Of a stretch of DNA of 64,000 nucleotides, positions 9,702-62,737 are shown piece after piece. The position numbers were made by a program, and so were the translations under genes. The DNA is from a virus. Position 1 is the stretch's first letter; each line of letters begins with the position of its first letter. The notes under the pieces are model-generated. The model was given only the letters and a program-made list of their open reading frames with translations, did no database searches and was not told the origin of the DNA. The stretch is taken from the IMG/VR virus record IMGVR_UViG_3300034060_000856, positions 1-64,000 of that record; one strand, given 5' to 3'.

Positions 9702-10223
9702 ATGGAAAAGAATTTAACAGAAAAACTTTATGAAGAGCTCAGAAAAAGGAGAATCTTTGAAGAAGACGAAGATGAGAAAGACGAAGATGATGAAAATGTT
9801 GATATTGAAGATGAACAAGACGACAACGATGAGGAAGACAATGTAGAAGACGAGTCAAACGACGGTTTTTGTGAAATGGTTTGTAATATCCTACATTCAA
9901 GAAATCAAGCACATGTCTTTCATTTACAAACAAAATCTTACGCTGAACACATCGCATTAAATACTTACTATGACGGTGTTGTTGATTTGTTTGACGGTAT
10001 TGTTGAATCATATCAAGGAAAGTACGGAATTATTAGTAATTTCAAGACATTCAAAATTGAACAATACAGAAATGGTAAAAAAACCATTTCGTATTTTGAA
10101 AGATTACTTGACATAATTGAAGAAAATAGAGATTCAGTTGACGACAGTTATCTCCAAAACCAAATAGACACTGTACAGGAATTAATCAATTCAACAATCT
10201 ATAAATTAAGATTTCTTAAATGA
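9702..10223 (+). CDS. ferritin/Dps-like phage protein (DUF5856-like) with acidic N-terminal tract
   Basis: AHVFHLQT.SYAEH.AL..YYD...D..VESYQGKYG...YKL.FL. Confidence 0.8.
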   Translation: MEKNLTEKLYEELRKRRIFEEDEDEKDEDDENVDIEDEQDDNDEEDNVEDESNDGFCEMVCNILHSRNQAHVFHLQTKSYAEHIALNTYYDGVVDLFDGIVESYQGKYGIISNFKTFKIEQYRNGKKTISYFERLLDIIEENRDSVDDSYLQNQIDTVQELINSTIYKLRFLK

Positions 10224-10579
10224 AAATAATAATCACAGAAAATGAAAGAAAGCCAATCTCCTCACAACACGAGGAGTTTGAGTCTTATATATTAAATTTT
10301 CTGATGAGAAGGATTAATGTTGAGAAAAGAAAACTTGGTGGTGATTTTGGTGATTTTGAACCACTTACAACTATAGAATATAATTTTAATGGTTTTCCTG
10401 GTCACGGATTTAATTCTTTTCAAAACAGATCATATTGGGAAAGAAGAGTTATTGAATTACTTGAAGAAGCTGAAATTATACCACAAGATTGGGCTGGTGA
10501 TTTAAAAGTTGAAAATTCAGAAAGACAAAAAATTATTAGAACAATTAGAAAATTTATTAAAAATATTTTGATTAACTAA
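10220..10579 (+). CDS. leader-bearing protein (MKIIITE)
   Basis: shared N-terminal leader. Confidence 0.75.
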   Translation: MKIIITENERKPISSQHEEFESYILNFLMRRINVEKRKLGGDFGDFEPLTTIEYNFNGFPGHGFNSFQNRSYWERRVIELLEEAEIIPQDWAGDLKVENSERQKIIRTIRKFIKNILIN

Positions 10580-10597
10580 AAAAAAGTATTACATTTG
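10567..10597 (+). promoter_or_regulatory. Bacteroidota promoter
   Basis: TTTG-N19-TACATTTG. Confidence 0.8.
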
Positions 10598-10629
10598 TTT
10601 ATTGTTTAACTTAAAATATAAAATAAAAA

Positions 10630-10878
10630 ATGGGATTAAAATCAGGAAGTAAAGGTCGTTACATCACAAAAGTTGGTTACTTGGATGTTTACGCAAAAGA
10701 CAGTCACAAACCAAAAAAAGAATCAAAATACAATTTTGTAAAGGCGGAAGTAAAATCAACAGTTTATAACATTCTTCACGCAAAGAAATTAGTTAAAGGT
10801 AACTTTAATACTAAAGAGGAGGCGGTACAACACGCAATTGAAGCTTTGGGTGATAAAAGAGTTCATTATTCTTTATAA
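10630..10878 (+). CDS. small basic protein
   Basis: has its own promoter and terminator. Confidence 0.75.
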   Translation: MGLKSGSKGRYITKVGYLDVYAKDSHKPKKESKYNFVKAEVKSTVYNILHAKKLVKGNFNTKEEAVQHAIEALGDKRVHYSL

Positions 10879-10883
10879 AAAAC

Positions 10884-10910
10884 AAACCGGATCACAAGTC
10901 CGGTTTTTTT
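10884..10910. terminator. bidirectional terminator
   Basis: aaaccgga/tccggttt stem between convergent genes. Confidence 0.8.
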
Positions 10911-10914
10911 ATGT

Positions 10915-11490
10915 CTAATCATCCCAATGTATTTCGGTATCTTCAAATTCTAAACCAAAATTTTTCGCTTGAATTAAAACGTAATCCTCAATTTCCCACT
11001 TCATAGTATCAGTTACGTCATCCCAAATTTCATCATATTCATCATCATATAATTCTTCCATAGATAAAACACCCTGATCAGTCATAAATTGACCATCAAG
11101 AAGAGCAAAACCAAATTCAAGTATTTCGTTTGAACCAACAATCCTTTTTCCACGGTAATCGGGATTATAAATCCTAGTAATTTTAACTCTATATTTATCA
11201 TCCGGGTGGACACGAATACCAATACTTTTTATATCTTCTTCGGTTATAATTTTACCATCAATAACGTTTTTAAATAATTTAAACGCCTCTTCTTCACCAC
11301 CAACAAAATCAAAATATACTTGTATTATCTCATCAAAATAATCAGATAATTTTTTTCTTTCCATATCTTTAATATCTAATTTTGGTGTTAAACCAGAATC
11401 AACTTGTCTCTGTAAATTTTTGACAATGTAATTTTTAAGAACTTGAATATTCTGATCTTCTTTTAATATTTTTCTTATTAAACTTTTCAT
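10915..11490 (-). CDS. leader-bearing acidic protein (MKSLIRKILKED)
   Basis: reads on the MINUS strand (cat at 11488-90, cta at 10915); track strand label is wrong; paralogous to the next gene. Confidence 0.85.
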   Translation of the reverse strand: MKSLIRKILKEDQNIQVLKNYIVKNLQRQVDSGLTPKLDIKDMERKKLSDYFDEIIQVYFDFVGGEEEAFKLFKNVIDGKIITEEDIKSIGIRVHPDDKYRVKITRIYNPDYRGKRIVGSNEILEFGFALLDGQFMTDQGVLSMEELYDDEYDEIWDDVTDTMKWEIEDYVLIQAKNFGLEFEDTEIHWDD

Positions 11491-12068
11491 TCCCAATCTA
11501 CAGTAATATAATCAAAATGGTTTTTTATGTCAAAACCAAACGATTCAAGAATGGTACCAACAAAATTCATAACAAAATTTTTAATCTCATCTTTAAAATC
11601 CCAATATGAAACAAAATCATCAAAAGGATTTTCGTTTGATGAAAAATTATAAGTTTCCTCTTCATCACTATTATAAAAAGAACCACTCAACACTTCAAAT
11701 TCAATGTCCAGATCTATAGTATTTATAGACACATTATCATTCTCTGTAAACTCAACTTTGGTAAATTTTATTTTTATTTTTCCTTCGTCTAGATATTTCA
11801 TATCTGTAATTTCATTTTCCGTGAAAGTGTGATTTAAGAGGTATTGTTTTACGGCCTCACTTCTACTATTAATATTACCATAACCCATAAATTCAACAAA
11901 ATATTGGATTATTTCATCTTTTTTACTAGAAAGACCCAATTTATTAATGTCAAAAATTGTAGGAAGTTCTCCTTTATTTACTTGGCCTTGCCATCTTTTA
12001 AAGAAAAAGTTTTTAAGAGGATTATTTGAGTTCTCCTCAAGTAGAATATTTTTTATACGTTCTCTCAT
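11487..12068 (-). CDS. leader-bearing acidic protein (MRERIKNILLEE)
   Basis: leader; TATTTAT upstream on the minus strand. Confidence 0.85.
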   Translation of the reverse strand: MRERIKNILLEENSNNPLKNFFFKRWQGQVNKGELPTIFDINKLGLSSKKDEIIQYFVEFMGYGNINSRSEAVKQYLLNHTFTENEITDMKYLDEGKIKIKFTKVEFTENDNVSINTIDLDIEFEVLSGSFYNSDEEETYNFSSNENPFDDFVSYWDFKDEIKNFVMNFVGTILESFGFDIKNHFDYITVDWE

Positions 12069-14317: not shown

Positions 14318-15172
14318 ATGGTTAAAAAATTCATCATTGATGAGGTAAAAACAAATTCAGAGTTATTAGGAATAACAGATTATCAAACATCAAACCAAGA
14401 AGATCTCAAATTAAAAAACTATATTACAATATCAAAGGAAGACAAACTCCCAAAAAATTTAGAAATAAATTATATTAGTAATAATTGGAAAGTTGCACAA
14501 TTTTTAAATAAGATTCTGTACGAAATCTATAAAGACAATTTAGGATACAATCAAGATAAATCAAAGTATGGAATTGTTGATATATACACATTAGGAAATA
14601 AAATAAATTGGTCAATTTTAAATTATTTTGGTGGACACAAATACATTAAACAATATCTCCTTGATTTATTTAATACAAAGAACACCCAAGAAGATAAGAC
14701 ACCAGAGAATTTTTATTTATGGGTATTAATTAATATGACAACACTTTTTAAAAAAGGAAACATATTAGAAGAGTTCATAAAAACAAATATGTATACTTAT
14801 AATAAAGGAAGAAGTACTGAAAATTTTGTTTCAGAGATACTTGAAAAAAAAGGTTATAACATTATTTATTATCCACCAGGATCAAAATTTGATAGAGATT
14901 TTGGTATTGATATGGAAATAAACGGAACGACATATCAGGTAAAACAATTATTTGAAATAAGTGATGACGACATAAATTACTATTTATTAACACCATTACC
15001 AAAAAATTATCTTGGCTTACCGGTACAAAGGATTATGTTAGTTAATACAAATAATTCAAGTTTTGTGTCATTCTCAAATGAGAATTATGAAATTGATGAA
15101 GATGGTTGTAGGTATATTATTAAAAAAGAGATTAACAAACAAATAAAAAAAGGAAATTTAAACGACTTGTGA
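14318..15172 (+). CDS. PD-(D/E)xK nuclease-like protein
   Basis: G...E helix, D...GID.....YQVK. Confidence 0.6.
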   Translation: MVKKFIIDEVKTNSELLGITDYQTSNQEDLKLKNYITISKEDKLPKNLEINYISNNWKVAQFLNKILYEIYKDNLGYNQDKSKYGIVDIYTLGNKINWSILNYFGGHKYIKQYLLDLFNTKNTQEDKTPENFYLWVLINMTTLFKKGNILEEFIKTNMYTYNKGRSTENFVSEILEKKGYNIIYYPPGSKFDRDFGIDMEINGTTYQVKQLFEISDDDINYYLLTPLPKNYLGLPVQRIMLVNTNNSSFVSFSNENYEIDEDGCRYIIKKEINKQIKKGNLNDL

Positions 15173-15363
15173 AGATTATAATAACAGAAAAACAAGCTGA
15201 AAAATTATTTGGTGAAACTATAAAATGCCAATGTGGTCACTCTTGGAAAAAAGAAACAAATGACCAGGATCCCTATTTGTGTCATATGTGTGGTTGGGAT
15301 CAGAAACAAAAAAAATATAATGACGATAAATTAATTAAATTTTGGAGGACGTATAAAAAATGA
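15169..15363 (+). CDS. leader + Zn-ribbon protein
   Basis: GTG start, KIIITEKQ; CQCGHSW...YLCHMCG. Confidence 0.75.
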   Translation: MKIIITEKQAEKLFGETIKCQCGHSWKKETNDQDPYLCHMCGWDQKQKKYNDDKLIKFWRTYKK

Positions 15364-16634: not shown

Positions 16635-17306
16635 ATGAAAATTAAAGTAACAGAAAGTCAATTAAAAAAAATTGCAGAAAATGTAAAAACTGATAATTTA
16701 AATGAAGGATTAACCGATTTTTTAAAAGGTGCATATTCCTCAATTAAAACTCTTGTTACTAAATTTAAAGATGGAGATTTATCAAAAGTTGATTTTGAAA
16801 AAGAATTAGAAAAATTAAGAGGTAAAGAAGAAGATAGTGGTGAAAGTGGTGAGATACCAAAAGGTAAAGGTTATGGATTTAATAAAAGCAACGGTTTTAA
16901 ATCAAAAGAAAGACCAAGTCACGGAGGTGTAGATTTTCAAGGTAGGGAAGGGGATAAAATTGTGATTAAAAAAACAGGAGAAGTTGTAGGTGTAAGTACC
17001 GGATGTAGTACTGGAAATCAAAAATGTGGTGGTGGATGTGGAAATTACGTTAAAATTAAACACGAAGACGGTAATACAACAATGTATTGTCATATGACAG
17101 ATGTTTATTCAAATATAAAAACAGGAACGAAAATAAAACCAGGTAAAGTTATTGGTACTATTGGTAATACTGGTCATTCTTTTGGTGATCATTTACACTT
17201 CCAGTTTTGGAATGGTGGTAACTTATCTGATGGGTCATCACAAGCTGAAAAATATTTTGTTATTTTAGACAAGTCTTCAAAGTATGGAGAAAAAGATAAA
17301 GGATAA
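16635..17306 (+). CDS. leader + M23 peptidase
   Basis: MKIKVTESQL; HGGVD, YCHM, GNTG.S.G.HLHF. Confidence 0.9.
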   Translation: MKIKVTESQLKKIAENVKTDNLNEGLTDFLKGAYSSIKTLVTKFKDGDLSKVDFEKELEKLRGKEEDSGESGEIPKGKGYGFNKSNGFKSKERPSHGGVDFQGREGDKIVIKKTGEVVGVSTGCSTGNQKCGGGCGNYVKIKHEDGNTTMYCHMTDVYSNIKTGTKIKPGKVIGTIGNTGHSFGDHLHFQFWNGGNLSDGSSQAEKYFVILDKSSKYGEKDKG

Positions 17307-17315: not shown

Positions 17316-18083
17316 ATGAAAATAATTGTCAAAGAATCACAAATTAAAAAAATCATTAAAGAAGAAAAAAAACAACAACTAAATGAAAGTTTGAGTTTGT
17401 TGGGATGGATCTTTACTCTTAGCCTAGGTACTTGGGCAATCAGTTTAGTTTGGAATTTATTTAAAAAATATAAAAAAGGTGAAATATCAAAAAAAGTTTT
17501 TAAACGAGGTGTTTCTAAAATAAAACAAAAAGATAGTGCAGGTTATTACAATAATGAAGAAAAACGTTATTATGGTAATACTGATGAATATAGGTCTGGT
17601 GGAGTAAAAACAACAAACATTGTAATCGGTGACCCACAAGCATCAGTTATTGCTGGTAAATCAAGAAAGGCAAACCTTATTGGTCGTAAGGCCGGTGAAT
17701 CAAACTTATGGTACCCAGGTGCTGACGTTTCTTGGTTAAAAAATGCACTTAGAAAGTTTCCCATTTCACCGGAAGTAAATAATGTTATTATATGTATTGG
17801 GACAAATGGTGGGTTCAACCCAAACGATGATGTAAACGGATTATTTGGGGAATTAAAGGGTAAATTTCCCAATGCTAATTTCCACACAGTTCAAGGATCC
17901 TGGGGTAAAGGTTCAAATGTTGAGGTGGAATTATATAATGTTGAAAGATATTATAATAATTTTAAAAACTACTCCAATATTATTGGCAGTGTTGGTGATA
18001 TAGGTAATTTAAAATTACATCCACACAACCCAAAAATTCGGTCTTATGATGAGATCGCAAACGAAATAGATAGATCACTTTAA
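17316..18083 (+). CDS. leader + TM + SGNH-like domain
   Basis: IGDP (for GDS), IGTNG, LHP. Confidence 0.6.
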   Translation: MKIIVKESQIKKIIKEEKKQQLNESLSLLGWIFTLSLGTWAISLVWNLFKKYKKGEISKKVFKRGVSKIKQKDSAGYYNNEEKRYYGNTDEYRSGGVKTTNIVIGDPQASVIAGKSRKANLIGRKAGESNLWYPGADVSWLKNALRKFPISPEVNNVIICIGTNGGFNPNDDVNGLFGELKGKFPNANFHTVQGSWGKGSNVEVELYNVERYYNNFKNYSNIIGSVGDIGNLKLHPHNPKIRSYDEIANEIDRSL

Positions 18084-18585: not shown

Positions 18586-18972
18586 ATGAAATATCTCATA
18601 ACTGAAAATAAAATAAATTCTTTTACACAAAGAATAATAAATGATACATTAACTGAATTTAGAAATGTTTGTGAAGTTCCAGATGCCGATACTTGGCCAG
18701 ATTGGTTAAGTTTTGATGATTGTAATAGTTTAGAATCAATTGAAAAAATTGAAGTCGTAAATACACAAATTTTAAAATTGACAAAAGGATTAGGAAAACA
18801 ATACCCAACATTTGGGGTTGACATAAACATACATTTTTCAAGTATCTTTGCAAGTCAAGATTTTAGTGACTTTCTTATTGCATTAGCTTATAGGATAAGA
18901 CAAAAATATAAAGTCACCCTAATGTTCAATGAAAATGAATCAATTAACACCAACACTAATAAAGAGTGGTAA
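18586..18972 (+). CDS. leader-bearing protein
   Basis: MKYLITE; TATTTAT upstream. Confidence 0.8.
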   Translation: MKYLITENKINSFTQRIINDTLTEFRNVCEVPDADTWPDWLSFDDCNSLESIEKIEVVNTQILKLTKGLGKQYPTFGVDINIHFSSIFASQDFSDFLIALAYRIRQKYKVTLMFNENESINTNTNKEW

Positions 18973-19290: not shown

Positions 19291-19689
19291 ATGAAAGATA
19301 TAATTAGAAAAATATTAAGAGAAGAGGCTGAAAATGAGGAACGGCACAAATCAAACTTAAAAGTAAAACGTGCAATTGAGAGAGTGTTAGATTTGGTTAT
19401 TACTAATTATGATTACAACAAAGATGAAACAGAACTATTTTTTTTCGATAAAAATAAAAAATGTTTATTAACCTACAAAATTAAAGAAAAAAAAATATGG
19501 TATGATCACTACTTACTTAATGAAATAATATCACAAATGGTAAGAGTTCGGTTTTATATTAAGGACTTATTTAAAGAAGCACTTAAAATTTGGTTTGAGA
19601 AAAATTTTAAATCAAAAGGATTTGAAGTTGGTGATAAATATTGGTCTAATGGACCAAACATAGAAGGGGCAAATATTGCCTTATATTAA
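19291..19689 (+). CDS. leader-bearing protein (MKDIIRKILREE)
   Basis: leader plus TATTTAT. Confidence 0.8.
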   Translation: MKDIIRKILREEAENEERHKSNLKVKRAIERVLDLVITNYDYNKDETELFFFDKNKKCLLTYKIKEKKIWYDHYLLNEIISQMVRVRFYIKDLFKEALKIWFEKNFKSKGFEVGDKYWSNGPNIEGANIALY

Positions 19690-20467: not shown

Positions 20468-20971
20468 ATGAATATTAGACAATCCATAAAAAAAATTCTA
20501 AAAGAAGAATTTAACCGTGAATCTAAAATATTCTCGGCCGTTGAAAAATATGGTATTATAAAAACTTGTGGAATGGTTGGTGGCATCAATCAACTCGCCA
20601 GTATATTAAATGAAACACCGGAAGGACTACTTACAAAGTACTTGAGTAAAGAAACATTCTCAACCAACGACATAGAAAAAAACACTGGTGGTTATAACTT
20701 TAAATTTAAATTACAATTTGTAGAAAAATATAACGATTATTATAATTTTTTCTTTGTGATAGAAGAAGGAACTGTTGAATTAATTATGACCGATGATGAC
20801 ACTGAATATAATTTATTTGGTAACTATATTAGAGAACTAGAAAGTTGGTGGGAAATAAAATATGAAATAAAAGACATATTATATGATTTTGTTAAAGAAC
20901 TTAACAATAAAATAAAATTTGATGATATCACAGTTAATGATGTTGATTACACCTTCAAAGACAAAAGATAA
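20468..20971 (+). CDS. leader-bearing protein (MNIRQSIKKILKEE)
   Basis: leader. Confidence 0.8.
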   Translation: MNIRQSIKKILKEEFNRESKIFSAVEKYGIIKTCGMVGGINQLASILNETPEGLLTKYLSKETFSTNDIEKNTGGYNFKFKLQFVEKYNDYYNFFFVIEEGTVELIMTDDDTEYNLFGNYIRELESWWEIKYEIKDILYDFVKELNNKIKFDDITVNDVDYTFKDKR

Positions 20972-21318: not shown

Positions 21319-21645
21319 ATGCAAATTGTCCTTACAGAATCACAATATAATACACTAATAAGAAGATTAGATGACTTTGTTGTAATTGACAGACAGTTTA
21401 AATACCAGTTAAGACAAAAAATACCTTGTAATTTTACTGATTTTGAAGATTATTTTAATTTTGTTTCATATAGAACAGAAGATTATGTTACTAATAAATT
21501 AATAGAAAATAAAATAATTGAGTTTGATTTAGAATTATCAAATAAGATTAGAAGTGAGATTGAAAACTATATTAAGGATAATTTTTTAGAATACGCAAAA
21601 GAGTATTACGATTATTATAAAGAAAAAAACTGTCCGGAAGAATGA
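21319..21645 (+). CDS. leader + RR-family protein
   Basis: MQIVLTESQ; LIRR, PCNF. Confidence 0.8.
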   Translation: MQIVLTESQYNTLIRRLDDFVVIDRQFKYQLRQKIPCNFTDFEDYFNFVSYRTEDYVTNKLIENKIIEFDLELSNKIRSEIENYIKDNFLEYAKEYYDYYKEKNCPEE

Positions 21646-22004
21646 ACCTACAAGAGAACATAAGAAGAATATTAAAGGAAGAGGTAAATGTTCCTCCATA
21701 TATTAAAAGAAGATTGTATGTTGTTGATGAATACATTAGTGATTTAGATCCTGAAGATGTTTGTAGATATTGGGATGATAATCACGCTAAAGAATATGTA
21801 AACCAACATATGTCAGACATTGTTAGAAGTATTGTAGATTTTAGAATCCAAGTAAATGATGATGAATATACTGAAAAGTATGATGAAATATACGGTTCAT
21901 TAATTGATTTAGGGTACAGAGAAAAATTAGAAGATTTCTTCTACGAATCATTACAAAACTGTAACCCAAAACATAGGATGAGGTTTATGAAATCACAGCA
22001 TTGA
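21642..22004 (+). CDS. MNLQE leader + RR-family protein
   Basis: MNLQENIRRILKEE; IKRR. Confidence 0.8.
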   Translation: MNLQENIRRILKEEVNVPPYIKRRLYVVDEYISDLDPEDVCRYWDDNHAKEYVNQHMSDIVRSIVDFRIQVNDDEYTEKYDEIYGSLIDLGYREKLEDFFYESLQNCNPKHRMRFMKSQH

Positions 22005-22049
22005 CAATATGAATTAAAAGTGTTATAGTTTAACATAAAATTATAACAT

Positions 22050-22679: not shown

Positions 22680-22694
22680 TTCATATCTTTGTGT

Positions 22695-23287: not shown

Positions 23288-23292
23288 TCCAT

Positions 23293-23903: not shown

Positions 23904-23913
23904 AGATAATACA

Positions 23914-23944: not shown

Positions 23945-23966
23945 GTTTTCCATATATTTATACAAT

Positions 23967-24281
23967 ATGAACCTACAAGAATCCATAAGAAAAGTATTAA
24001 GGGAAGAACTAAAATCAAAATTCTTTCTTAGGAGAATTAAATTAAATGATGTTAAAAGAATACTTCCACTTAATGCAGAACAGGTGTATTATGAAACGGA
24101 AAGTTATGGACAGTTCAAATATGAATTAACTTTAAGAGCTGTAGAAACAATTATGTACAATGAGTATGATATGGGGTGGGAAGATCTACCACAACAAGAA
24201 GAAATAGATTTTGTAACAGATGTTTCAGATATGTTTGATGACAAAATTAAATCATTATACAACCACTACAAAGAAAGATAA
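23967..24281 (+). CDS. MNLQE leader + RR-family protein
   Basis: TATTTAT at 23955; leader. Confidence 0.8.
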   Translation: MNLQESIRKVLREELKSKFFLRRIKLNDVKRILPLNAEQVYYETESYGQFKYELTLRAVETIMYNEYDMGWEDLPQQEEIDFVTDVSDMFDDKIKSLYNHYKER

Positions 24282-24622
24282 TGAACCTACAAGAATCCAT
24301 AAGAAGAATATTAAGGGAGGATACTATTAATATTGCAACAATCCTACGCAGAGTTAATTCTGATGATTTAGAAAGAGAGTTTGAGGAGTCATTAGACATG
24401 GCATCAACGTGGTTTTTAAATTTGACTTTCAATGGATTGGCTGTGAATTTAAACAGATTTATAGATGTGGCAATTTCAAATACAATTGACGGAATCCACC
24501 ATGACTTATACAGTACATTACCGGAAGATGTCCAATGGTATGAAGATGTTAAAGAAACTTTAAAAGAATATTATAGAGATAGAATCAAGGTTACATATAA
24601 AAGATTAATGTCAGAACTATAA
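24281..24622 (+). CDS. MNLQE leader + RR-family protein
   Basis: leader; ILRRV...L..EF. Confidence 0.8.
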   Translation: MNLQESIRRILREDTINIATILRRVNSDDLEREFEESLDMASTWFLNLTFNGLAVNLNRFIDVAISNTIDGIHHDLYSTLPEDVQWYEDVKETLKEYYRDRIKVTYKRLMSEL

Positions 24623-24623: not shown

Positions 24624-25355
24624 ATGAACCTACAAGAAAACATAAGAAGAATATTAAGGGAAGAATTTAAATTACCTAATTTGATTAGAAGAAGATTTAA
24701 TGAAGAAGAACTTGATAAATTAGTCTCCAATGTAGAGAGAACATTTGAGACACACAGAATTTCCCAACAACACAGAGAAGATGTAATAGATGCCGAAGTA
24801 GATGACTTTATTATGAATAGTGTTTATTATGGTGAATTTGAGGACTTTGACGATGAAATATACCAAGATATATATAATCTGTACAGAGAACCATTGGTTA
24901 ATTATATAAAATCAAAATTAGATATGAACCTACAAGAATCCATAAAAAAAGTATTAAGGGAAGAACTAAATAATAGGGGTGACTGTAATATTATGTATGT
25001 TCCAGAACAATTTAGTAAATTAGATAGGTTTTCAAATCTGTGGGATATGGTGGTTAATGAAATTGATGAATTGATAGAAGTTTCTCAATTAGAAAAAGAA
25101 TTATTACCAAAAGACATTACAGTATATTCAGTTCAAGAAAAGTTTGATATAGAATACGTAAAAAGAATGGACGATGAAAGATACAATAAATCTGATATTA
25201 GTTTGTTCAAATATAAAAATAAATTATACATAATAGATGGGCATCATAGATTATGTTATGATAGATTAAATAATAGAGATTCCTATGTTTATATCTTTGA
25301 TAAAGATGACAGTCAAATTGTTGATTGTATATTTTACGGTATAGGAGATTGTTAA
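24624..25355 (+). CDS. two fused cassettes: leader-RR module + leader-ParB/Srx-like domain
   Basis: second MNLQE leader in frame at 24924; YIIDGHHR. Confidence 0.8.
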   Translation: MNLQENIRRILREEFKLPNLIRRRFNEEELDKLVSNVERTFETHRISQQHREDVIDAEVDDFIMNSVYYGEFEDFDDEIYQDIYNLYREPLVNYIKSKLDMNLQESIKKVLREELNNRGDCNIMYVPEQFSKLDRFSNLWDMVVNEIDELIEVSQLEKELLPKDITVYSVQEKFDIEYVKRMDDERYNKSDISLFKYKNKLYIIDGHHRLCYDRLNNRDSYVYIFDKDDSQIVDCIFYGIGDC

Positions 25356-50107: not shown

Positions 50108-50511
50108 AAAATGTACCAGAAAATTATTTGAGTAAAATTAAAACGATGAAAAACGTTATACTAACCACTTCTGGTCTATTATCTGAATATGGTAACTCCA
50201 TTAGTTTAGAACTTGGTGATATTGATTACAACCAAAACGTCAATGACGTTTACGAAATTGTGTTAGAATTAAAATTAACAGATGTTTATTGTCCAGATTG
50301 TGATCACGAGCCCAATATGGTAAGTAATACGATAAATGAAATTATTAAAAAAATATATAAAGGGTGTAATTTTGGTTTGACAGGTGATTTACAATTTAAA
50401 AATTCATTTATGTCAACAAGAGGTGTCTTATTGTACGAAACTAAATTGTGGAGGGATAATTTTGAATATATAGTTTTTGGTATTTTTATTGATCCAGGAC
50501 AAAAATATTAA
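50104..50511 (+). CDS. hypothetical protein
   Basis: coupled ORF. Confidence 0.65.
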   Translation: MKNVPENYLSKIKTMKNVILTTSGLLSEYGNSISLELGDIDYNQNVNDVYEIVLELKLTDVYCPDCDHEPNMVSNTINEIIKKIYKGCNFGLTGDLQFKNSFMSTRGVLLYETKLWRDNFEYIVFGIFIDPGQKY

Positions 50512-51125
50512 TTTCCAAACTTTTTTACAATTCCTTGTAATAGGTTTTTTATCATAGACCCACTTAACGTTACACCAACAAAACCAATTACTCTTTTTAT
50601 CATTTCTTCAATTTCCATAGAAGAATGACCTTGCGAATATTCATATAATTCAGGTATTATTGGTATTATAAAAGTATAGGCCATCATATTTGATATTTTT
50701 GAAACCGGTATTGCTAGACTACCAATAAAAGAAATAAAATAATCTTTTAACTCTGATGCTTTATTTAACATATGGTCAAATTCTTGAATTAAAGATTTTT
50801 CTTTTACCTTATCTAAAACTTTTTTCAGACCTTCTTTATTGGTTGTAAAATACGTTAAAATAACCCCTGTTGAAAGTAATGCTAATTCCGTATTTGTTAA
50901 TTCTGGATAATTACCTTTTATAAATTCAGCTATTGGTCTAACAAATCCGGCGATTGTAACACCCCACGTTGCTAAAAATTCAAGATCTAAACCAATCTGT
51001 TTTTTTGACTCTGAAGAGACGGTTTTAAAAAACTTTTTTAGTGATTGTAATTTATCAACAACATTATTTGTTCTTTCTTCAAATATTATTTTTTTGTATT
51101 GTGATTCTGTCAAAATAAACTTCAT
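50508..51125 (-). CDS. leader + multi-TM membrane protein
   Basis: MKFILTESQYKKIIFEE; several hydrophobic helices. Confidence 0.8.
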   Translation of the reverse strand: MKFILTESQYKKIIFEERTNNVVDKLQSLKKFFKTVSSESKKQIGLDLEFLATWGVTIAGFVRPIAEFIKGNYPELTNTELALLSTGVILTYFTTNKEGLKKVLDKVKEKSLIQEFDHMLNKASELKDYFISFIGSLAIPVSKISNMMAYTFIIPIIPELYEYSQGHSSMEIEEMIKRVIGFVGVTLSGSMIKNLLQGIVKKFGN

Positions 51126-51488: not shown

Positions 51489-52094
51489 ATGAACTCTTAC
51501 TTTTTTAAAATGACAAAAGAAGAAAAACAAAACATTTTAGACTCACATAAAAGTGTCTATGATGGTTTTGCAACACAGTATGGTCAAAATACAAATCAAC
51601 AACCTTTATACGTTCAAGACTTTGCAAACGACAAAAATGGTATTACTGTTAACAACAAAGGAGAAGTAAAAACATATACAAATATGAATATCAATGAACG
51701 TTTTGATAGTAGAGATAAAATTGCTGACGGACCACACGATTTACAAAATGGTACTGTTGATTTTAGAGGTACACCAGATATGTCAGAGGTGAATAGTGAA
51801 TATTTTCACGATTTAAAGTCATCACCAAACGAAGATGAGGTAGAATTTATTTCATTAGGTATTGATGAACCAGAAAGTGAAGAAAGTGAAGAAGAACCAT
51901 TTGACGATTATAACGATTTAAGTATGTATAACCCATATTATGGTAGTGACGATTATGATATAGATGAACCAACTGACAATACTGAAGATGATTATGATGT
52001 ATTTTCAGAATTAGGTGTGGAAGAAAAACCAGAAGTGATTGAGAAAATAAACGAGTCTTTAGATATGTTTAAAAGATTCAAAAGATATAATTAA
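51489..52094 (+). CDS. acidic leader-bearing protein
   Basis: MTKEEK.NIL..H; C-terminal INESLDMFKRF. Confidence 0.75.
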   Translation: MNSYFFKMTKEEKQNILDSHKSVYDGFATQYGQNTNQQPLYVQDFANDKNGITVNNKGEVKTYTNMNINERFDSRDKIADGPHDLQNGTVDFRGTPDMSEVNSEYFHDLKSSPNEDEVEFISLGIDEPESEESEEEPFDDYNDLSMYNPYYGSDDYDIDEPTDNTEDDYDVFSELGVEEKPEVIEKINESLDMFKRFKRYN

Positions 52095-53884: not shown

Positions 53885-53889
53885 AAATT

Positions 53890-56109
53890 ATGAAAAAAAT
53901 AGATAACATATTATTTGAAGAACTAAACCGAATTAAAGCCCTTTTAAACGAACAAAGTGTAAAAAGTGATAGACTAGGTACAACAGGACAATTTCAAAGT
54001 TTTGTTCCACAAACACCAAAATTTAAAGGTAAATTAGTTCCATCTTTATCACAAAATGAACAGTATAGATCAAAATTTTTGAAGGATCCTTGTGAACTTT
54101 CTGGTGTTGATGCGTTTTATAGACAAAAAATGGTTGACGTTCCTGGGTACTATTCCGATTTTAAATTAGGGGAATGTTCTGCTGTGGAGTATTTTGGAGG
54201 ACAAGAAACCGCACTAAACACTATGAATATTAATAGAAATATTTACCAAGACGAACAAGGTTATTTTTTTAAAGTAAATACAGAAGGTAGTACTAAAGAA
54301 ACACAATTTGACGTTTCAATATACTTACCGCAAGATGAGTTTTTTAAACAATTACAAGGCAAAGCTAAATCATTTATTACTTTTTCTACGTGTCCTGCGG
54401 CTTGTAAATACAAACAAGGTCAACAATTAAATGATGATGAACAAAGTTCTAGATATGTACTTTTGTATCAATTAGCTGATCCTAGTAAAGCCACAGAAAC
54501 TAGTATTGCAACGCCACAAGGAATACAAACGTTTGGTTTAGAAACTATAGATAGAGGTTGGCAGTTCTCAACCGTAAATGTTTTAGAATCTGGTTATTAC
54601 TCGGTTTCAAATCCAGAACAAATGGCAACTTCAGAAATAAAAGAATATACAAGCACTGATTATGGTGAAAATCAAGCTAGAAGTGAATTTGATATATGGT
54701 ATGATGGTACTGCCGGTACAATAGCTCAAATAGGTATTGCCGTATTATTATCATACGTAACAGCTGGCGCAGCCGCTCCATATCTTGCCGCAATTGAGTC
54801 ACAAGGCGCTAGAATTTTTGCAAATTTAGCTTTGCAAACAACCGTTGAGTTAACCGTTGCAATACCTGAAGCGGTATATCTTTACGGTAGAGGAATGAAC
54901 AGTAATGCGGCCTTTGTGATAATGCTATCATTAATTCCAGTTGTACAAGCAAAAGTATTTAAAGGTGAATTTGCGGATCCGGCAGCATTTGGTTATGTCC
55001 ACGAATTAACAAGAAGATATGGTACTGGTCAGTTTAAAACACCGGCGGATTTAAAAAGATATGTAAATAGTTTAGGAAAAACAGAAAAAGCATCTCTTGA
55101 AAAATTATTAAAAGGGACACAGGATGCTTTAATTGCTAATGGTGGAAAAATGGCACAAGAAGAAGTTGCTGCAGTTATGGGGCTTGTTTTAAAAAATTCA
55201 GATACTGGAATAAATAAAATTGGATTTAGTTTAGGTCGTGTTGGTTATGAACAAATTATAGCACAATATGTACCAACCGCAACTCAAAATTTGATTAAAA
55301 ATGCAACATCTTTATTCGGGACACTTGGGTCAACATTATTGATCCACCCAATTACGGCATACCTAATAAAAGATGCCGATTGGGTCAAAAATCCACAAAA
55401 AATAGATATTGCACAAAAAACTTTAGAAAAGATTTTTAATTCTCAAAAAGATAAAAATAAAGAAAAAGTACAAAAAGAAGTAAAAGGTTTACAGACAAAA
55501 ATAGAAAAAGCAGCATATAATCAAAATAAATCAGAGGTCATCCAACCTATTTACGATTTAATTTTTTATATAGACGATTTATTAAAAATTGCGGAAAATA
55601 AGATAGTACTTGGACAAAGTTTAGAAGTTTTAAAAACCCAGTATAAAAGTGTAATAATTGGTCAATTACTATCGGAAATTGCTAGGGCTATTTATGAAGA
55701 AATGAAAGCTAGTCAAGGGGCTTCTTCTCCGACTGCGAATTATTTAGACCAAAATGGGTTACCGGTATCAACAAAACCTTGGTTTGAGATTCAGATCGAA
55801 ACTTGTAAATCTGAAGAACTTTATAAAATGAAACAACTAAACTTTACAAATATTGATAATCCTAGTGATATTGAAATAAAAAGAGCTTGTTCATTTAGAG
55901 ATTTTATTAGGTCAACATATCCTAGTATGGCTAATTTAAAACATTGTGGTTTTTATGAAGAAGGGGAACAAGTTCCACCACCAAAATGGTTTTATATAAA
56001 AGATTGTGAATTTAAGAAAATTTGGAATGGGGTTGAAACTAAAACCAATAAAAGATATTGTGAATTGTGGCTAGAATCGTTAATTAACAAAAAAAAACAA
56101 AAAGTATAA
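53890..56109 (+). CDS. large probable virion/ejection protein with a hydrophobic region
   Basis: LFEELNRIKALLNEQ leader; Ala-rich TM-like helices. Confidence 0.7.
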   Translation: MKKIDNILFEELNRIKALLNEQSVKSDRLGTTGQFQSFVPQTPKFKGKLVPSLSQNEQYRSKFLKDPCELSGVDAFYRQKMVDVPGYYSDFKLGECSAVEYFGGQETALNTMNINRNIYQDEQGYFFKVNTEGSTKETQFDVSIYLPQDEFFKQLQGKAKSFITFSTCPAACKYKQGQQLNDDEQSSRYVLLYQLADPSKATETSIATPQGIQTFGLETIDRGWQFSTVNVLESGYYSVSNPEQMATSEIKEYTSTDYGENQARSEFDIWYDGTAGTIAQIGIAVLLSYVTAGAAAPYLAAIESQGARIFANLALQTTVELTVAIPEAVYLYGRGMNSNAAFVIMLSLIPVVQAKVFKGEFADPAAFGYVHELTRRYGTGQFKTPADLKRYVNSLGKTEKASLEKLLKGTQDALIANGGKMAQEEVAAVMGLVLKNSDTGINKIGFSLGRVGYEQIIAQYVPTATQNLIKNATSLFGTLGSTLLIHPITAYLIKDADWVKNPQKIDIAQKTLEKIFNSQKDKNKEKVQKEVKGLQTKIEKAAYNQNKSEVIQPIYDLIFYIDDLLKIAENKIVLGQSLEVLKTQYKSVIIGQLLSEIARAIYEEMKASQGASSPTANYLDQNGLPVSTKPWFEIQIETCKSEELYKMKQLNFTNIDNPSDIEIKRACSFRDFIRSTYPSMANLKHCGFYEEGEQVPPPKWFYIKDCEFKKIWNGVETKTNKRYCELWLESLINKKKQKV

Positions 56110-56190
56110 ATCAAAAAACATAAATAAAAAAAAATAGATTTTATTATATTTTTTTTATTTATTTAATATATTTATTAAAAAATGTAAAAT

Positions 56191-58218
56191 ATGAAAAATT
56201 CAAAACTACTCCTTGAGGAGGTTTTTAGAATGCGCGAACTTATGGGGTTTCCCTCAACTGATAAAGTCTTAAATTTATTAAAAGAAAGTGTTGGTGAAGG
56301 AATAAATGATTTTTGGAAATTTTTAGGGAAGGAATTAGCTTCTACTACTGACGAAGCAACAAAACTTACCAACATACAGAAGGCCTACGATGGTTTAGAT
56401 GCTTTAGACAAAAATACGATTGACGAGTTCATAAGAATTAAAAGAGGAGTTAGTGGTAGCTTTACAATCACCGATTTGATGAGTCTTTATAAAACTAAAG
56501 GATTACAACAATTAGTTAATGATATGGCAAATGATCAAGCACGATTACAACAATTACTTATAAAAAACCGTTTTAGCTTTAATATCCGTCCTGGTGAAAA
56601 TATTATTACTTCAACAACAAGACTTTTAAACGATCCAAATATCTCAGATGAGGTAAAAGGAATTTATCAAAAAACACAACAAATGGCAAAAAATCCTAGT
56701 GAAGTAGTTGGTGAATCAGAATTGGAGGCCTATTTAACCCAAATGGTTAAATTTAAAAATTCCCCAGAGTTCAAAAAGTTGAGTTCAGATGTACAAGACG
56801 ATATAAATAAAACGTATGACGAATTGAATGCCATACAAGTTAAGGCTGAAAAAGAAAGAATTGCTTTTGAAGCGTCGATTGAACCTGGTAGGTATGATGA
56901 CGATGTGTTAGCTGATGTTGACACAAATCTTGGTGATGATTTTGAAGCAGAACAAATCATAACAAGAGCTGAAGATGAAGCCGGTGATGCCGCAAGAGGT
57001 GCTGATGAGACTGGTGGTCGAACATATAGTATGCCAGAAGTAGAAGAAGAACGAATTGTAGAACTATCCATAGATGAAATAAGGACTCAAAAATACACCG
57101 GTATGGATGATATGTTATTAAAACAAGAATATGCAGTATTGATTGCAGGTATTAAAGGTAATAAAGTTAAATTCCCATTTGATAAAAACGTCCTAGCTCT
57201 ATTCAAAGAAATGGAACAAAGAGGTTTATTAAAAAATGATGATCTTGTTGGTAATATTTTAGCTAGTAACATCACAATGAACCCTAATGTTATTGCAATG
57301 CAAAAATTATTATCTGAATATGAAATATATAAAAAGAAAATGTTGAAAGACAATGTTAAAATTGTTGGTCCTGATGGTATCCTTAAAGATAGTGCACCAT
57401 TAGATTTTGTTGATTGGGCAATTAAAAATAAAAGAACAATACCAACTAATGTAAATTCACAAACTTTACTAAATAAAACTTCGGAGTATTTAGATTTTGT
57501 TTTTCTATGGCCACTTAGAAGACTCATTGGTAAAAGTACAGAGCAAGGAAGTTTCTCTAGAGCTTTACTTAATTTATTATTAGGATATGGGGGTGGAGCA
57601 TCTCTTGGTTGGGGTTTTTACGCCTCTTTAAAAAGTTATGGTCAAGCTGGAATTAGTTTTTTGGATTCAACACCTATCGCACAAAAACAAGCAATAAAAA
57701 CTGGTTTAAAAACTTACTTTACTTATGATAATCCTCAATTAATTATTAATGGTGAAACAGAGTCTATCTATGGTACAAGTATTGACCAAAGTAGACAAGC
57801 AAACATACAATTTAAAAATGCCACACCAACACCAATTTTTGATTTAGATATTAAACAAAGACAGTTTTCATTGGATCCTGGCATAGTAATAAAGGGTAAA
57901 ACATATAATGCATTTCTTATTAATTTTGGTGAAGGTAATTTTATTACACAAGGTTCAGAAAATTTTGGTAATAAAAATATATTAGTTGCAATAACCCAAT
58001 CAACTAAAACACCTACAACCACAACTCAAAAAGGAACAGAAGCAATTTTTAAAACCTCAAATTTCGCACAAGGTAAAACAATAACAGCATTTGTTTATAA
58101 AGGAATTGTAAATAACAAAGAACAATACGAAGTGAAATTCTATTCAAATACAGATCCTGATAAAAATGTAGTATCAAGAACATATTACTTTGATGGTACT
58201 AATTGGACAAAAAATTAA
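56191..58218 (+). CDS. large probable virion/ejection protein
   Basis: LLEEVFRMRELM...LLKE; TATTTAT upstream; Gly-rich hydrophobic segment. Confidence 0.7.
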   Translation: MKNSKLLLEEVFRMRELMGFPSTDKVLNLLKESVGEGINDFWKFLGKELASTTDEATKLTNIQKAYDGLDALDKNTIDEFIRIKRGVSGSFTITDLMSLYKTKGLQQLVNDMANDQARLQQLLIKNRFSFNIRPGENIITSTTRLLNDPNISDEVKGIYQKTQQMAKNPSEVVGESELEAYLTQMVKFKNSPEFKKLSSDVQDDINKTYDELNAIQVKAEKERIAFEASIEPGRYDDDVLADVDTNLGDDFEAEQIITRAEDEAGDAARGADETGGRTYSMPEVEEERIVELSIDEIRTQKYTGMDDMLLKQEYAVLIAGIKGNKVKFPFDKNVLALFKEMEQRGLLKNDDLVGNILASNITMNPNVIAMQKLLSEYEIYKKKMLKDNVKIVGPDGILKDSAPLDFVDWAIKNKRTIPTNVNSQTLLNKTSEYLDFVFLWPLRRLIGKSTEQGSFSRALLNLLLGYGGGASLGWGFYASLKSYGQAGISFLDSTPIAQKQAIKTGLKTYFTYDNPQLIINGETESIYGTSIDQSRQANIQFKNATPTPIFDLDIKQRQFSLDPGIVIKGKTYNAFLINFGEGNFITQGSENFGNKNILVAITQSTKTPTTTTQKGTEAIFKTSNFAQGKTITAFVYKGIVNNKEQYEVKFYSNTDPDKNVVSRTYYFDGTNWTKN

Positions 58219-58229
58219 TTTAAGTAAAA

Positions 58230-60255: not shown

Positions 60256-60354
60256 CTTGTTTGGTGTAGTTACCGAATAAGGATAAACCATCTAAAGAAA
60301 GGGAGGTGTTCAGTTTATCTAGCAGAATAGGAGCTTAGGTTCCTATTTTGTTTT
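60256..60354 (+). ncRNA. putative structured RNA with an anti-16S-tail segment, ending in a terminator
   Basis: 11-bp hairpin 60256-81; gataaac/gtttatc stem enclosing AGAAAGGGAGGTGTTC; terminator 60323-54. Confidence 0.55.
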
Positions 60355-60388
60355 AAGGTTGGGCTATATTTATTATTAAATATCTTTT

Positions 60389-60985
60389 ATGTTTTCAGTG
60401 GTAATACCAACAATGTGGCAAAGTGAATATCTTTTACTTATGCTACCAATATACGAAAATTGTGATTTAGTAGTGGAAGTCATATTGATAGATAATGCTT
60501 TTGAAAAAAAACCGAATTTAACAGATTTTAAAAAAATTAGATATTATTCAGAATTTAAAAATATTTTTGTAAACCCAGCATGGAATGTTGGTTACAAACT
60601 GGCTAAACACAAAATCATTTTAGCAAATGATGATATATTAATTGAAAATTTAACAGAAGTTTTACAAGAAATAAAAAATTCTAATTTTGATATTATAGGT
60701 GTTAGTTGGGAGCAAAGTAACACTTTAAGAATTGAAGAGATTGACGAATTTAAAAGATCCGGATTTGGATGTTTTATGTATGTAAAACATTATACAACAA
60801 TTCCAGAAAATTATCTAATATTTAGAGGTGATTATATTTTATTCCAAAATAACACTAGGAGGGGTGAATTATTCAATCCAAAGATAAAAGGTGAAATTGG
60901 TAAAACAAGAAAAAGCGATGAGACACTAAGAGAAATTTCATTAAATGATCTGTGTAAATATTCCCAAAACAATTTAAATGTATGA
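60389..60985 (+). CDS. GT-A (GT2-like) glycosyltransferase
   Basis: SVVIPT, ILIDN, N..VNPAWN.G, LANDD. Confidence 0.85.
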   Translation: MFSVVIPTMWQSEYLLLMLPIYENCDLVVEVILIDNAFEKKPNLTDFKKIRYYSEFKNIFVNPAWNVGYKLAKHKIILANDDILIENLTEVLQEIKNSNFDIIGVSWEQSNTLRIEEIDEFKRSGFGCFMYVKHYTTIPENYLIFRGDYILFQNNTRRGELFNPKIKGEIGKTRKSDETLREISLNDLCKYSQNNLNV

Positions 60986-61953
60986 ATAAAATTTTTGACA
61001 TAACGGTTGTAATCCCAACGTATAATAACATTGAATATCTTGAAGAAATGCTAGAGTCTATAAATAACTCTAAACAAAATTATACAGTTGAGGTTCTAGT
61101 TGGTATTGACGGTTGTAAAAAAACTTTGGACTTTGTTAAAACCAATTTTTTTGACGAGAATGTAAGGTTTCTTTTTTTTGAACAAAATGGTGGCCCGTAT
61201 ACAATAAAAAATACCCTAGTACAAAAAGCAAGTGCGGAAAAAATAATTTTTTTTGATTCTGATGATTTAATGTCAGAAAATTTAATACCAAAAATAATAA
61301 AGACATTGGATTTGTTTAAGATTTGTAAATTTCGTTATAAAAACTTTATTTATAATAAAACTGATAATTATAAACAATCGGTTTCATATGGTGAAGGTGT
61401 TTTTGGTATAACAAAAAGTTTATTTTTAGAAATGAATGGGTTTGAGCCTTGGATTTGTGCTGCAGATAGTGATTTTTGGGGTAGGGTATATAAATCAAAT
61501 GTAAAAGCTAGATTTATAAATGAAATATTAATGCTTCGCAGAATACATAATAATCAATTAACAAAAAGAAATGATACTGGAATGCGATCAACTTTGCGAG
61601 CTTATTATTGGAAATTAAGTAAGTCAAAAAGAGGAAATGGTAACCCATCTTTTTTGAGTGTTCGAAAATACTTTGAAATCCACGATGTTAATTCAGAAAG
61701 ATTAAAATTTGAACAAATTAGTATTTTAAGAAAAAAGGAAGTTCTAATTGAGAGTGTAAAATCGGTATTAATGTCTAACAATTTAATTGTTCCACCATCG
61801 AAACCAAAAAAACAACCTCCAGTCGAGTTAAACTACGATCTTGTAAATAAGTTAATGATAAAAAAATTAAATCAAACTCAAGAACAAGAAAAAAAACCAA
61901 GTTTAATCCCAGATAGACAAAATCTTTTTGATTTAAAAAGAAAAAAGGTTTGA
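60982..61953 (+). CDS. GT2 glycosyltransferase
   Basis: VVIPTYN, IDG, N.GPY...N, FFDSDD, D.DF..R, R.H..Q. Confidence 0.9.
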   Translation: MNKIFDITVVIPTYNNIEYLEEMLESINNSKQNYTVEVLVGIDGCKKTLDFVKTNFFDENVRFLFFEQNGGPYTIKNTLVQKASAEKIIFFDSDDLMSENLIPKIIKTLDLFKICKFRYKNFIYNKTDNYKQSVSYGEGVFGITKSLFLEMNGFEPWICAADSDFWGRVYKSNVKARFINEILMLRRIHNNQLTKRNDTGMRSTLRAYYWKLSKSKRGNGNPSFLSVRKYFEIHDVNSERLKFEQISILRKKEVLIESVKSVLMSNNLIVPPSKPKKQPPVELNYDLVNKLMIKKLNQTQEQEKKPSLIPDRQNLFDLKRKKV

Positions 61954-61993
61954 TATATTATATAATATTTTTTATCTTTATAAAAAAGAAAAT

Positions 61994-62173
61994 ATGTACG
62001 TAATAGTTAAACACATCAAATTAGAGGAAAGTAAAAAAAGAGTTCCTGTTATCTTACTTAATACTCAAAGTGAAATTTGGGAATTTGACACAGAAAAAGA
62101 GGCTGAAAAAATGAGAGAAGTTTTTGAATTAAATTCAGATTCGGGACATATTTACGAAATTAAAAGGATTTAA
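61994..62173 (+). CDS. small protein
   Basis: 59-aa ATG ORF. Confidence 0.6.
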   Translation: MYVIVKHIKLEESKKRVPVILLNTQSEIWEFDTEKEAEKMREVFELNSDSGHIYEIKRI

Positions 62174-62305
62174 TAAAAATGTTATACTATGGAAGAAATA
62201 CTTGAAGAAATCCATTTTGAGTTTGTTGATTCGGACGATTTCATACATTTTATAAAATTATTGGTAGAATTACAACAAACTGAAGATAACTGATATTTAT
62301 TTTAT

Positions 62306-62737
62306 ATGAAAGTAAGATTAACTGAATCAGAATTAGTTTCTTTGATAGAAAAAATCATCAAAGAAGAAAGAACAACTATGGATGATATTAAATACATACA
62401 TCCAGAGACAGGGAAAGAATGTCTTATAAAAGTTGCAAAACACAAATATACAAATAGGTTTGGTGCTGAATATGGATCTATTTTGGTTTGTGATGAATAT
62501 GGTGATGGTGAATATATGACCGTTGCCGAATTACCAATTAATGGTTCTAGTTTTGAAGAGGTGAGTGATATGATATGTAATAATCTTGAACGAGTATTTG
62601 AGATTTTAAACAAAATGTTAGCTGGCGAAAGTGAAGAAATAACAGAAGATTATAGTAAATACAGTAAATGGGATGTTATAGACCAGCCTATTGTTTGTTC
62701 AGGTAGACCAAAAAGGAAAAGAAGTTGGGAAGCTTAG
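62306..62737 (+). CDS. leader-bearing protein
   Basis: MKVRLTESELVSLIEKIIKEE. Confidence 0.8.
   Translation: MKVRLTESELVSLIEKIIKEERTTMDDIKYIHPETGKECLIKVAKHKYTNRFGAEYGSILVCDEYGDGEYMTVAELPINGSSFEEVSDMICNNLERVFEILNKMLAGESEEITEDYSKYSKWDVIDQPIVCSGRPKRKRSWEA

Follow-up and report, generated by a model that had tools for sequence, protein, structure and literature searches.

The window analyzed here is a 64,000-nucleotide stretch, the first 64 kb of the 98,693-bp IMG/VR record IMGVR_UViG_3300034060_000856 (G000; GC of about 30%, estimated by CheckV to be 34% complete). Between positions 9702 and 62737, proteins that otherwise appear unrelated begin with short leaders containing (I/L)-x-E motifs. 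An earlier sequence-only reading had sorted these leaders into four types, A to D, and proposed that they form a portable tag for loading cargo into the phage head; all the leader coordinates listed there translate as it stated. For the whole 98.7-kb record, 158 open reading frames (ORFs) were called and three adjusted, giving a set of 160, and hidden Markov models (HMMs) were built from the first 26 residues of the A leaders or the first 20 residues of the B leaders. The A model matched 25 and the B model 11 of the 160 ORFs, nearly all from residue 1. The A leaders occur in a long form of 22 amino acids (aa), M-K-K-I-I-K-L-T-E-S-D-L-T-R-I-V-K-R-V-I-K-E, and a short form of about 12 to 16 aa, M-K-I-I-I-T-E-S/N-Q-L, and the type is summarized as MKIIITE-SQL or MKKIIKLTESDLTRIVKRVIKE. 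The B leader reads M-N-L-Q-E-S-I-R-R-I-L-R-E-E, with the consensus MNLQESIRRILREE. The leader genes are listed below with their strand, and each motif is followed by the residue number of its Glu.

28125..28532, +, A-long leader; 135 aa; LTE-9, ISE-22; TATTTAT 5 nt upstream; HMM match
31022..31378, +, A-long leader; 118 aa; LTE-9; HMM match; AlphaFold2 (AF2) helix at residues 9-21
31415..31669, +, A-long leader; 84 aa; LTE-9, IKE-22; HMM match
34638..35036, +, A-long leader; 132 aa; LSE-9, ILE-22; HMM match
38786..39250, +, A-long leader; 154 aa; LTE-9, ISE-22; hydrophobic segment near residue 74
39877..40428, +, A-long leader; 183 aa; LSE-9, IKE-22
40722..41027, +, A-long leader; 101 aa; LTE-8, LKE-21
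46065..46604, -, A-long leader; 179 aa; LTE-8, LKE-21; payload 83% identical to a protein with a diverged leader in the relative G001
62306..62737, +, A-long leader; 143 aa; LTE-7, LIE-15, IKE-20
10220..10579, +, A-short leader; 119 aa; ITE-7; HMM match
15169..15363, +, A-short leader; 64 aa, GTG start; ITE-7; zinc-ribbon Cys pattern; G001 orthologue with ATG start
16635..17306, +, A-short leader; 223 aa; VTE-7, IAE-15, LNE-24; M23 without signal peptide (PF01551, E 5e-21)
17316..18083, +, A-short leader; 255 aa; VKE-7, IKE-16, LNE-24; hydrophobic segment straight after the leader
18586..18972, +, A-short leader; 128 aa; ITE-7, LTE-24; HMM match
21319..21645, +, A-short leader; 108 aa; LTE-7; HMM match
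31819..32394, +, A-short leader; 191 aa; ITE-7; HMM match
32431..32955, +, A-short leader; 174 aa; ITE-7, ISE-15; HMM match
32969..33709, +, A-short leader; 246 aa; ITE-7; HMM match
35813..36355, +, weak A-like leader; 180 aa; HMM E 1.4e-4; G001 payload homologue with a clear A leader
37116..37637, +, A-short leader; 173 aa; LTE-8; HMM match
37649..38707, +, A-short leader; 352 aa; LTE-7, ITE-15; phage lysozyme (PF00959) and LysM (PF01476)
40431..40688, +, A-short leader; 85 aa; ITE-8, IQE-26; HMM match
41520..42023, +, A-short leader; 167 aa; ITE-8, LLE-16; DUF6576 straight after the leader
50508..51125, -, A-short leader; 205 aa; LTE-7, IFE-16; HMM match; hydrophobic segment
10915..11490, -, B leader; 191 aa; LKE-11; HMM match
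11487..12068, -, B leader; 193 aa; LLE-11; HMM match
19291..19689, +, B leader; 132 aa; LRE-11; HMM match
20468..20971, +, B leader; 167 aa; LKE-13; HMM match
21642..22004, +, B leader; 120 aa; LQE-5, LKE-13; HMM match
23967..24281, +, B leader; 104 aa; LQE-5, LRE-13; HMM match
24281..24622, +, B leader; 113 aa; LQE-5, LRE-13; HMM match
24624..25355, +, two B leader copies; 243 aa; HMM stretches 1-20 and 101-117; internal leader from 24924
25357..25956, +, B leader; 199 aa; LQE-5, LRE-13; HMM match
46681..47271, +, B leader; 196 aa; ILE-5, LKE-14; HMM match
35407..35742, +, C pattern, weak A-like; 111 aa; ISE-8; HMM E 0.047
36374..37114, +, C pattern; 246 aa; ITE-9; second M23 payload (PF01551, E 3e-20)
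51489..52094, +, C pattern, doubtful; 201 aa; no HMM support
53890..58218, +, proposed type D, shared leader unsupported; two large ORFs of 739 and 675 aa

When every N-terminus was shuffled 20 times, the decoys gave zero N-terminal matches; the sole recurring match was the unshuffled internal copy at 24924, which lies in frame within ORF 24624-25355. The gene at 28125 begins at an ATG inside a longer ORF, yet it has TATTTAT 5 nt ahead of it. Types A and B were thus borne out by the HMMs and the shuffles, while the C pattern (35407, 36374, and 51489), (I/L)(S/T)E-EEK, proved to be a weak variant of A, and type D (53890 and 56191), consisting of only two sequences with little similarity, found no support. 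Likewise, the statement that similarity ends at the Glu held for A-long (E21/22) and B, but in A-short it runs 3 to 5 residues past the first Glu. That the payloads are unrelated was upheld: once residues 1 to 26 had been removed, BLASTP found no similarity between tagged proteins at E<=1e-3, trivial cases excepted. The same models found 18 A and 12 B proteins among the 333 ORFs of G001, an independent complete relative of 257,166 bp. About 36 of the 160 ORFs of the fragment, roughly a quarter, are tagged, and G001 has about 30 among its 333.

The tag family extends far beyond these two genomes. At E<=0.001, a profile of nine A-long leaders retrieved the representatives of 7,632 clusters (50% identity) from 1.84 billion proteins searched. 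Nearly all single-stretch matches begin at residue 1, and many members carry two or three tags per protein, the internal ones often without Met. A Pfam domain was recognized in 6 of 144 tagged metagenomic proteins (LysM in two; QueF, GNAT, DUF6576, and two weak ones in one each); the QueF-bearing member was not located by motif search. The 10 tagged cluster matches sourced from NCBI were annotated as "hypothetical protein" only, and a literature search for the tag and its motif strings found no paper describing it. A degenerate DNA pattern representing the 13-residue leader core occurred in at least 118 IMG/VR viral stretches, compared with a single contig in 596 Gb of prokaryote genomes. Furthermore, S77 protease genes were present in four of five large leader-bearing contigs, including all three with a completeness of 90% or more; the leader-bearing contigs of middle size are fragments, 11 to 18% complete. 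To judge from these searches, the leader is phage-specific and is seen only in an S77-bearing jumbo-phage group. The prokaryote-genome match, CANKZE010000111.1 (L100; 3.3 kb), was binned in a Bacteroidetes metagenome-assembled genome; it is probably a mis-binned phage fragment and could be a hint to the host. The suspected host is a freshwater member of the Bacteroidota.

Within the leader, the best-conserved residues are the two (L/I)-x-E motifs, at about residues 7 to 9 and 15 to 22. Among 144 metagenomic A-long members, L7 and E9 were invariant, and T8, L12, and E22 (E21/22 across A-long leaders) were conserved in at least 90%. Of 43 A leaders, 31 had a second [LI]xE no more than 18 residues after the first Glu, compared with 24% of 18-aa background windows (background frequency, 1.6 per 100 aa). 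In the AF2 model of the A-long protein at 31022, residues 1 to 8 were extended and a helix at residues 9 to 21 was the most confident part, while in that of the M23 protein at 16635, residues 1 to 29 had a predicted local distance difference test score (pLDDT) of <50 and lay outside the catalytic domain. The A-long helix is amphipathic (hydrophobic moment muH 0.85, top 0.3% of shuffles), cationic, and heptad-like, and a profile search of the PDB with the leader returned designed helices only, at E 0.5 or worse.

These features raise the question of whether the leader could instead be a docking or oligomerization peptide for some other partner, such as a chaperone, the conserved unfoldase of the Clp-type AAA+ class, or a hub at the membrane or in assembly, with (L/I)xE arising as a by-product of a helix rich in I, L, K, and E. 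The strong, heptad-like amphipathicity and the nearest PDB matches to designed helices would suit such a role, as would conservation exceeding the cleavage motif, internal copies acting as inter-module elements, the high [LI]xE background, and the Clp-type AAA+ gene found in all five large relatives tested. However, the positions that vary least are the two Glu and the P3 Leu/Ile, the stretch that holds the first motif (residues 1 to 8) is not helical, and ITE and LTE are documented gp21 sites (PMC5694885). We therefore regard docking on another partner as unlikely.

The statement that most tagged genes sit behind TATTTAT was confirmed. This promoter-like box (ATATTTAT) lies within 60 nt upstream of 26 of 41 leader genes versus 29 of 119 others (Fisher p=1.6e-5) and, in G001, of 20 of 29 tagged versus 74 of 304 other genes. 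It also stands ahead of the terminase, portal, protease, scaffold, major capsid protein (MCP), sheath, and gp25 homologue genes. It is missing from the DNA polymerase gene and from six neighbors of the DnaB-like gene. The pattern fits co-expression of the leader and head genes, as far as can be read from the genome. The distance from box to ATG is bimodal in the window and G001 (L086-L098), being 4 to 6 nt in 47 of 149 box-bearing genes and about 11 to 20 nt in most others; the 4 to 6 nt class comprises 23 of 46 tagged genes versus 24 of 103 other box-bearing genes. If the box is a -10-type element, this suggests that the 5-nt class would give leaderless mRNAs. In G001, the region from 110 to 135 kb (L091-L092) contains about 71 small ORFs, four TATTTAT boxes, and three tagged genes, and is probably an early-gene block with a different promoter class.

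Given the proximity of box and start codon, the conserved unit might be a portable expression cassette, composed of the box, a near-leaderless start, and favorable first codons, that spreads by duplication and recombination while the peptide itself has no function. The B cluster at 21642-25956 would fit this: its genes abut and its leader DNA is nearly identical, with 14 codon differences in 171 identical-residue comparisons, which points to recent duplication. The box lies 4 to 6 nt before the ATG in half of the leader genes versus 23% of other box-bearing genes, the suggested leaderless mRNAs would make the 5' codons matter for initiation and may shape the first few of them, and payload mosaicism and turnover are high. 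In the A-long leaders, however, the peptide is kept while the codons vary: ten such leaders differed in codon in 152 of 415 identical-residue comparisons (37%), which indicates selection on the peptide and not on the DNA. The same synonymous variation ruled out an RNA-level element. Conservation also reaches residue 22 over thousands of clusters, internal copies lack both promoter and Met, and the DNA upstream of leader genes is unconserved apart from the box. A functionless cassette thus seems to us a rather poor explanation, one to which we give only a small probability.

The payload labels assigned by the sequence-only reading fared unevenly. The M23 domains (16635 and 36374) and the lysozyme with LysM (37649) were recovered, and the zinc-ribbon Cys pattern (15169) and the hydrophobic segments (17316, 38786, and 50508) can be read directly from the sequence, but among the tagged proteins searched, Pfam gave no SGNH, ParB, or response-regulator domain at E<=0.01. 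Further nameable payloads are an endolysin-like protein (genome 67406-68185) and, in G001, a GH19 plus PG_binding_1 protein (L090:14481-15479). Nearly all nameable tagged payloads are peptidoglycan hydrolases without a signal peptide, which fits delivery from the virion. For the M23 protein at 16635, phage orthologues retain the leader, while its cellular counterparts begin with a signal peptide or some other N-terminal region. The remaining tagged proteins are ORFans in Pfam and PHROGs, no PHROGs family was found for 10 tagged ORFans, and an ESM Atlas search with one payload gave no usable match. Most are small, acidic, and soluble-looking, some with hydrophobic segments.

Since the hydrolases lack Sec signals, the tag might also be an unconventional signal for targeting to the membrane or for export to or across the cell envelope, and the hydrophobic segments of some payloads and the amphipathic, cationic helix could be taken in the same sense. 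The tag nevertheless bears a charged residue every 3 to 4 positions and lacks the hydrophobic core, some 10 residues or longer, of a Sec, Tat, or lipoprotein signal, in agreement with its prediction as an extended stretch plus an amphipathic helix. Moreover, most payloads are soluble-looking ORFans, and the proteins at 43306-45035 that are predicted to be secreted are untagged and begin with hydrophobic stretches resembling signal peptides. An export role is therefore improbable.

The tagged set is also the faster-changing part of the genome. A G001 homologue was present for 17 of 41 tagged payloads versus 54 of 89 untagged proteins, homologous payloads in G000 and G001 bear different leader types, and payload halves have been shuffled as well. 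A single short N-terminus shared by many small, unrelated proteins is also reminiscent of the recognition leaders of ribosomally synthesized and post-translationally modified peptides, which recruit a shared modifying enzyme such as a radical-SAM protein. Radical_SAM (PF04055) was, however, unmatched in G000 and in four leader-bearing relatives that are 96 to 100% complete, in searches that gave matches in all 14 control genomes, and no other candidate maturase was seen beside the tagged genes. We consider a modification leader very improbable indeed.

Beyond the window, the same contig encodes a T4-type head module, with a large terminase (phrog_2), a gp20-type portal (PF07230, E 1e-74), a helical, K/E-rich, core-like protein of 239 aa, and a prohead protease (genome 95899-96624). 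The last of these is the gp21-like enzyme on which the capsid-loading proposal leaned; it matched Peptidase_S77 (PF03420) above the cut-off at E 1.4e-22, and its His, Ser, and Asp were invariant in the alignment with T4 gp21, at what we take to be the catalytic-triad positions in the gp21 numbering. In relatives, the genes next after the protease encode an acidic scaffold-like protein and then a gp23-family MCP (PF07068, E 3e-72), which would lie just past the end of our contig. In these MCPs, the sequence ..ASFLINE(60)/ATS.. aligned with the T4 gp23 cut site ..GSFLTE(65)/AEI... This conserved maturation site indicates that the S77 protease has probably retained its specificity for (L/I)-x-Glu. 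Leader-like motifs had also been expected in head or core proteins, and (L/I)xE motifs of this kind do lie near the N-termini of conserved head-module proteins. Conserved genes in the neighborhood of those for capsid and terminase start with B-like tags, and one has an internal A-long tag. In addition, a 381-aa A-long-tagged gene lies directly 3' of the protease gene in G000, an insertion absent from relatives. Homologues of gp18, gp19, and gp25 are present in G001.

Several further observations were made on these genes. The G001 terminase and portal ORFs are 993 aa (L033:6-2987) and 1340 aa (L033:4052-8074) long, compared with 590 and 617 aa in G000, which suggests intein-like insertions. The Clp-type AAA+ gene of G000 encodes 686 aa (phrog_4871, E 1e-236; genome 78780-80840, minus strand; L004:14780-16840), and that of G001, G005, and G007 is interrupted by about 1.7 kb of inserted sequence. 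At 9702-10223, a protein was noted with LTE-7, a long Asp/Glu tract, and DUF5856 (E 5e-22); considered as an acidic core protein of the T4 gp67/gp68 type, it showed no BLASTP similarity to gp67 or gp68.

DNA nearly identical to the stretch was found in 20 DNA metagenome runs from 17 studies, mainly of lake water with a few sediment samples. Among 50,697 deposited phages, no DNA match to window positions 52643-60248 was found, and tblastn with two leader-bearing proteins gave no match even at E<=10. The best deposited match of the MCP taken from relatives was an uncultured 484-kb phage, at 46% identity. The source phage is, by these gene and sample comparisons, an uncultured giant T4-type lake phage of the T4 superfamily.

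Together, these results lead us to favor, with somewhat better than even confidence, the reading that the leaders are T4-like capsid-targeting propeptides, greatly expanded in number. Each tagged gene would be transcribed from its own ATATTTAT box, of the kind also found ahead of the terminase, portal, protease, scaffold, and capsid genes. The tag would form a short extended stretch up to (I/L)-T-E, to which the long and B forms would add an amphipathic helix leading to a second (I/L)-x-E, and it would dock the newly made protein on the scaffold or core of the assembling prohead. The gp21-type S77 protease would then cut after one or both Glu residues, freeing the cargo within the shell and reducing the tag to small peptides; an internal tag would allow a protein to be split into its modules, and the cargo would enter the cell with the DNA at the next infection. 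Most of the computational checks suggested with the sequence-only reading favored it, and the S77 protease, the MCP site, the shared box, and the restriction to phages all speak for this capsid-loading interpretation, from which we infer packaging, docking, cleavage, and injection. The roughly 36 tagged proteins are candidate cargo, and an anti-defense role for any of them is conjecture.

Several points weigh against this interpretation. Tagging on the scale of about 36 ORFs in 160 (G000) or about 30 in 333 (G001) is unprecedented; T4 has, by our count, roughly ten such N-termini. The payloads are mostly acidic (median pI 5.0), and T4 internal proteins are basic. Conservation, with T at P2 and S/N-D/Q-L after the Glu, goes beyond what a cleavage site needs, and the internal tags, often without Met, mean that an N-terminal position is not obligatory. 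The lysozyme plus LysM protein resembles an ordinary endolysin. TATTTAT also precedes the DnaB-like gene and glycosyltransferase-like ORFs and is therefore not exclusive to obvious late genes, and there were no RNA runs among the listed holders of the stretch. The co-occurrence of leader and S77 protease could mirror the shared ancestry of one clade. Finally, the MCP is at most 30% identical to those of deposited cultured phages, which are thus too distant for their virion proteomes to be borrowed.

The closest known parallel to the proposed capsid-targeting propeptides is found in T4, whose internal proteins carry an N-terminal capsid-targeting sequence (CTS) of 10 to 19 aa that is removed by gp21 and occurs on diverse proteins (PMC9026906, PMC3012670). 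The CTS is possibly the way in which T4-like phages load varied proteins (PMC9026906, PMC5694885, PMC3012670), and T4 Alt is processed at ITE-6 and LTE-619 (PMC5694885). The N-termini in the T4 record (AF158101) contain LIE-6 in gp67, IPE-6 in gp68, LIE-9 in gp21, LKE-4 and IAE-9 in gp22, INE-6 and LRE-10 in gp24, and ITE-6 in Alt. As with the CTS of IPI, IPII, IPIII, and Alt and the propeptides of gp24, gp67, and gp68, a short N-terminal tag here precedes unrelated, fast-evolving proteins. The tag contains (L/I)-x-E, with the same tripeptides ITE and LTE (Alt ITE-6 and LTE-619; gp23 LTE-65), and the S77 protease, portal, and capsid families and the capsid maturation site are shared with T4. 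The resemblance of the T4 N-termini to the tags is at the level of motifs only, the peptides being too short for a homology test. Unlike in T4, where six such N-termini were read from the record, there are about 30 to 36 tagged genes per genome; the tag is up to 22 aa long, usually has two motifs, and comes in several interchangeable types. The payloads also differ in being mostly acidic, with cell-wall hydrolases as the nameable ones, tags are internal as well, and the system is known from sequence alone. The system would be a greatly enlarged version of T4 cargo loading, a reading that the evidence slightly favors.

In the giant phages phiKZ, 201phi2-1, and SPN3US, heads contain tens of proteins, many cut after Glu, with several sites per propeptide (PMC5694885, PMC9026906). 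The giant-phage paralogues gp53 and gp54 share an identical N-terminus, and one of the ejection proteins includes a transmembrane segment in its mature form (PMC5694885, PMC9026906). The phiKZ-type propeptides, however, are mostly >100 aa, are not a shared portable tag, and are processed by an S80 protease at A/S/G-x-E, whereas the leaders described here are a short shared tag associated with S77. Polyvalent proteins consist of several modules, are thought to be delivered together with DNA, and are processed into separate effectors, according to the part of the source drawn on here (Iyer et al. 2017, PMC5512222). In this they resemble the metagenomic proteins with two or three internal tags; as that part describes them, they carry known conflict domains and their own processing peptidases, whereas here ORFan modules are separated by the tag itself. 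Encapsulin cargo-loading peptides are short and portable, direct unrelated cargo into an HK97-fold shell, and are usually C-terminal, uncleaved, and cellular. The tag is like them in being a short, portable, cargo-directing peptide and unlike them in its sequence, as well as in their C-terminal position, lack of cleavage, and cellular setting.

Learning which proteins a phage head holds otherwise takes a cultured phage and virion proteomics. Should the tag function in the way suggested, the head contents of a large uncultured phage group would become readable from sequence alone, and the known scale of T4-style cargo loading would grow from a handful to dozens of proteins in each phage. Thousands of ORFan families would gain a label, candidates for injected cell-wall hydrolases and counter-defense proteins would come into view, and the packaging of foreign proteins in capsids could draw on a longer targeting peptide with two sites. 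More tentatively, and with less than even confidence, we suggest that a swappable address tag on 10 to 25% of the genes across an uncultured freshwater jumbo-phage clade, spanning more than 7,600 protein clusters, may mark proteins that are loaded into the capsid, clipped there by the head protease, and injected. In that case, the ORFans would amount to a labeled catalogue of first-strike proteins, among them cell-wall openers, host-takeover and counter-defense proteins, and including polyproteins cut at internal tags.

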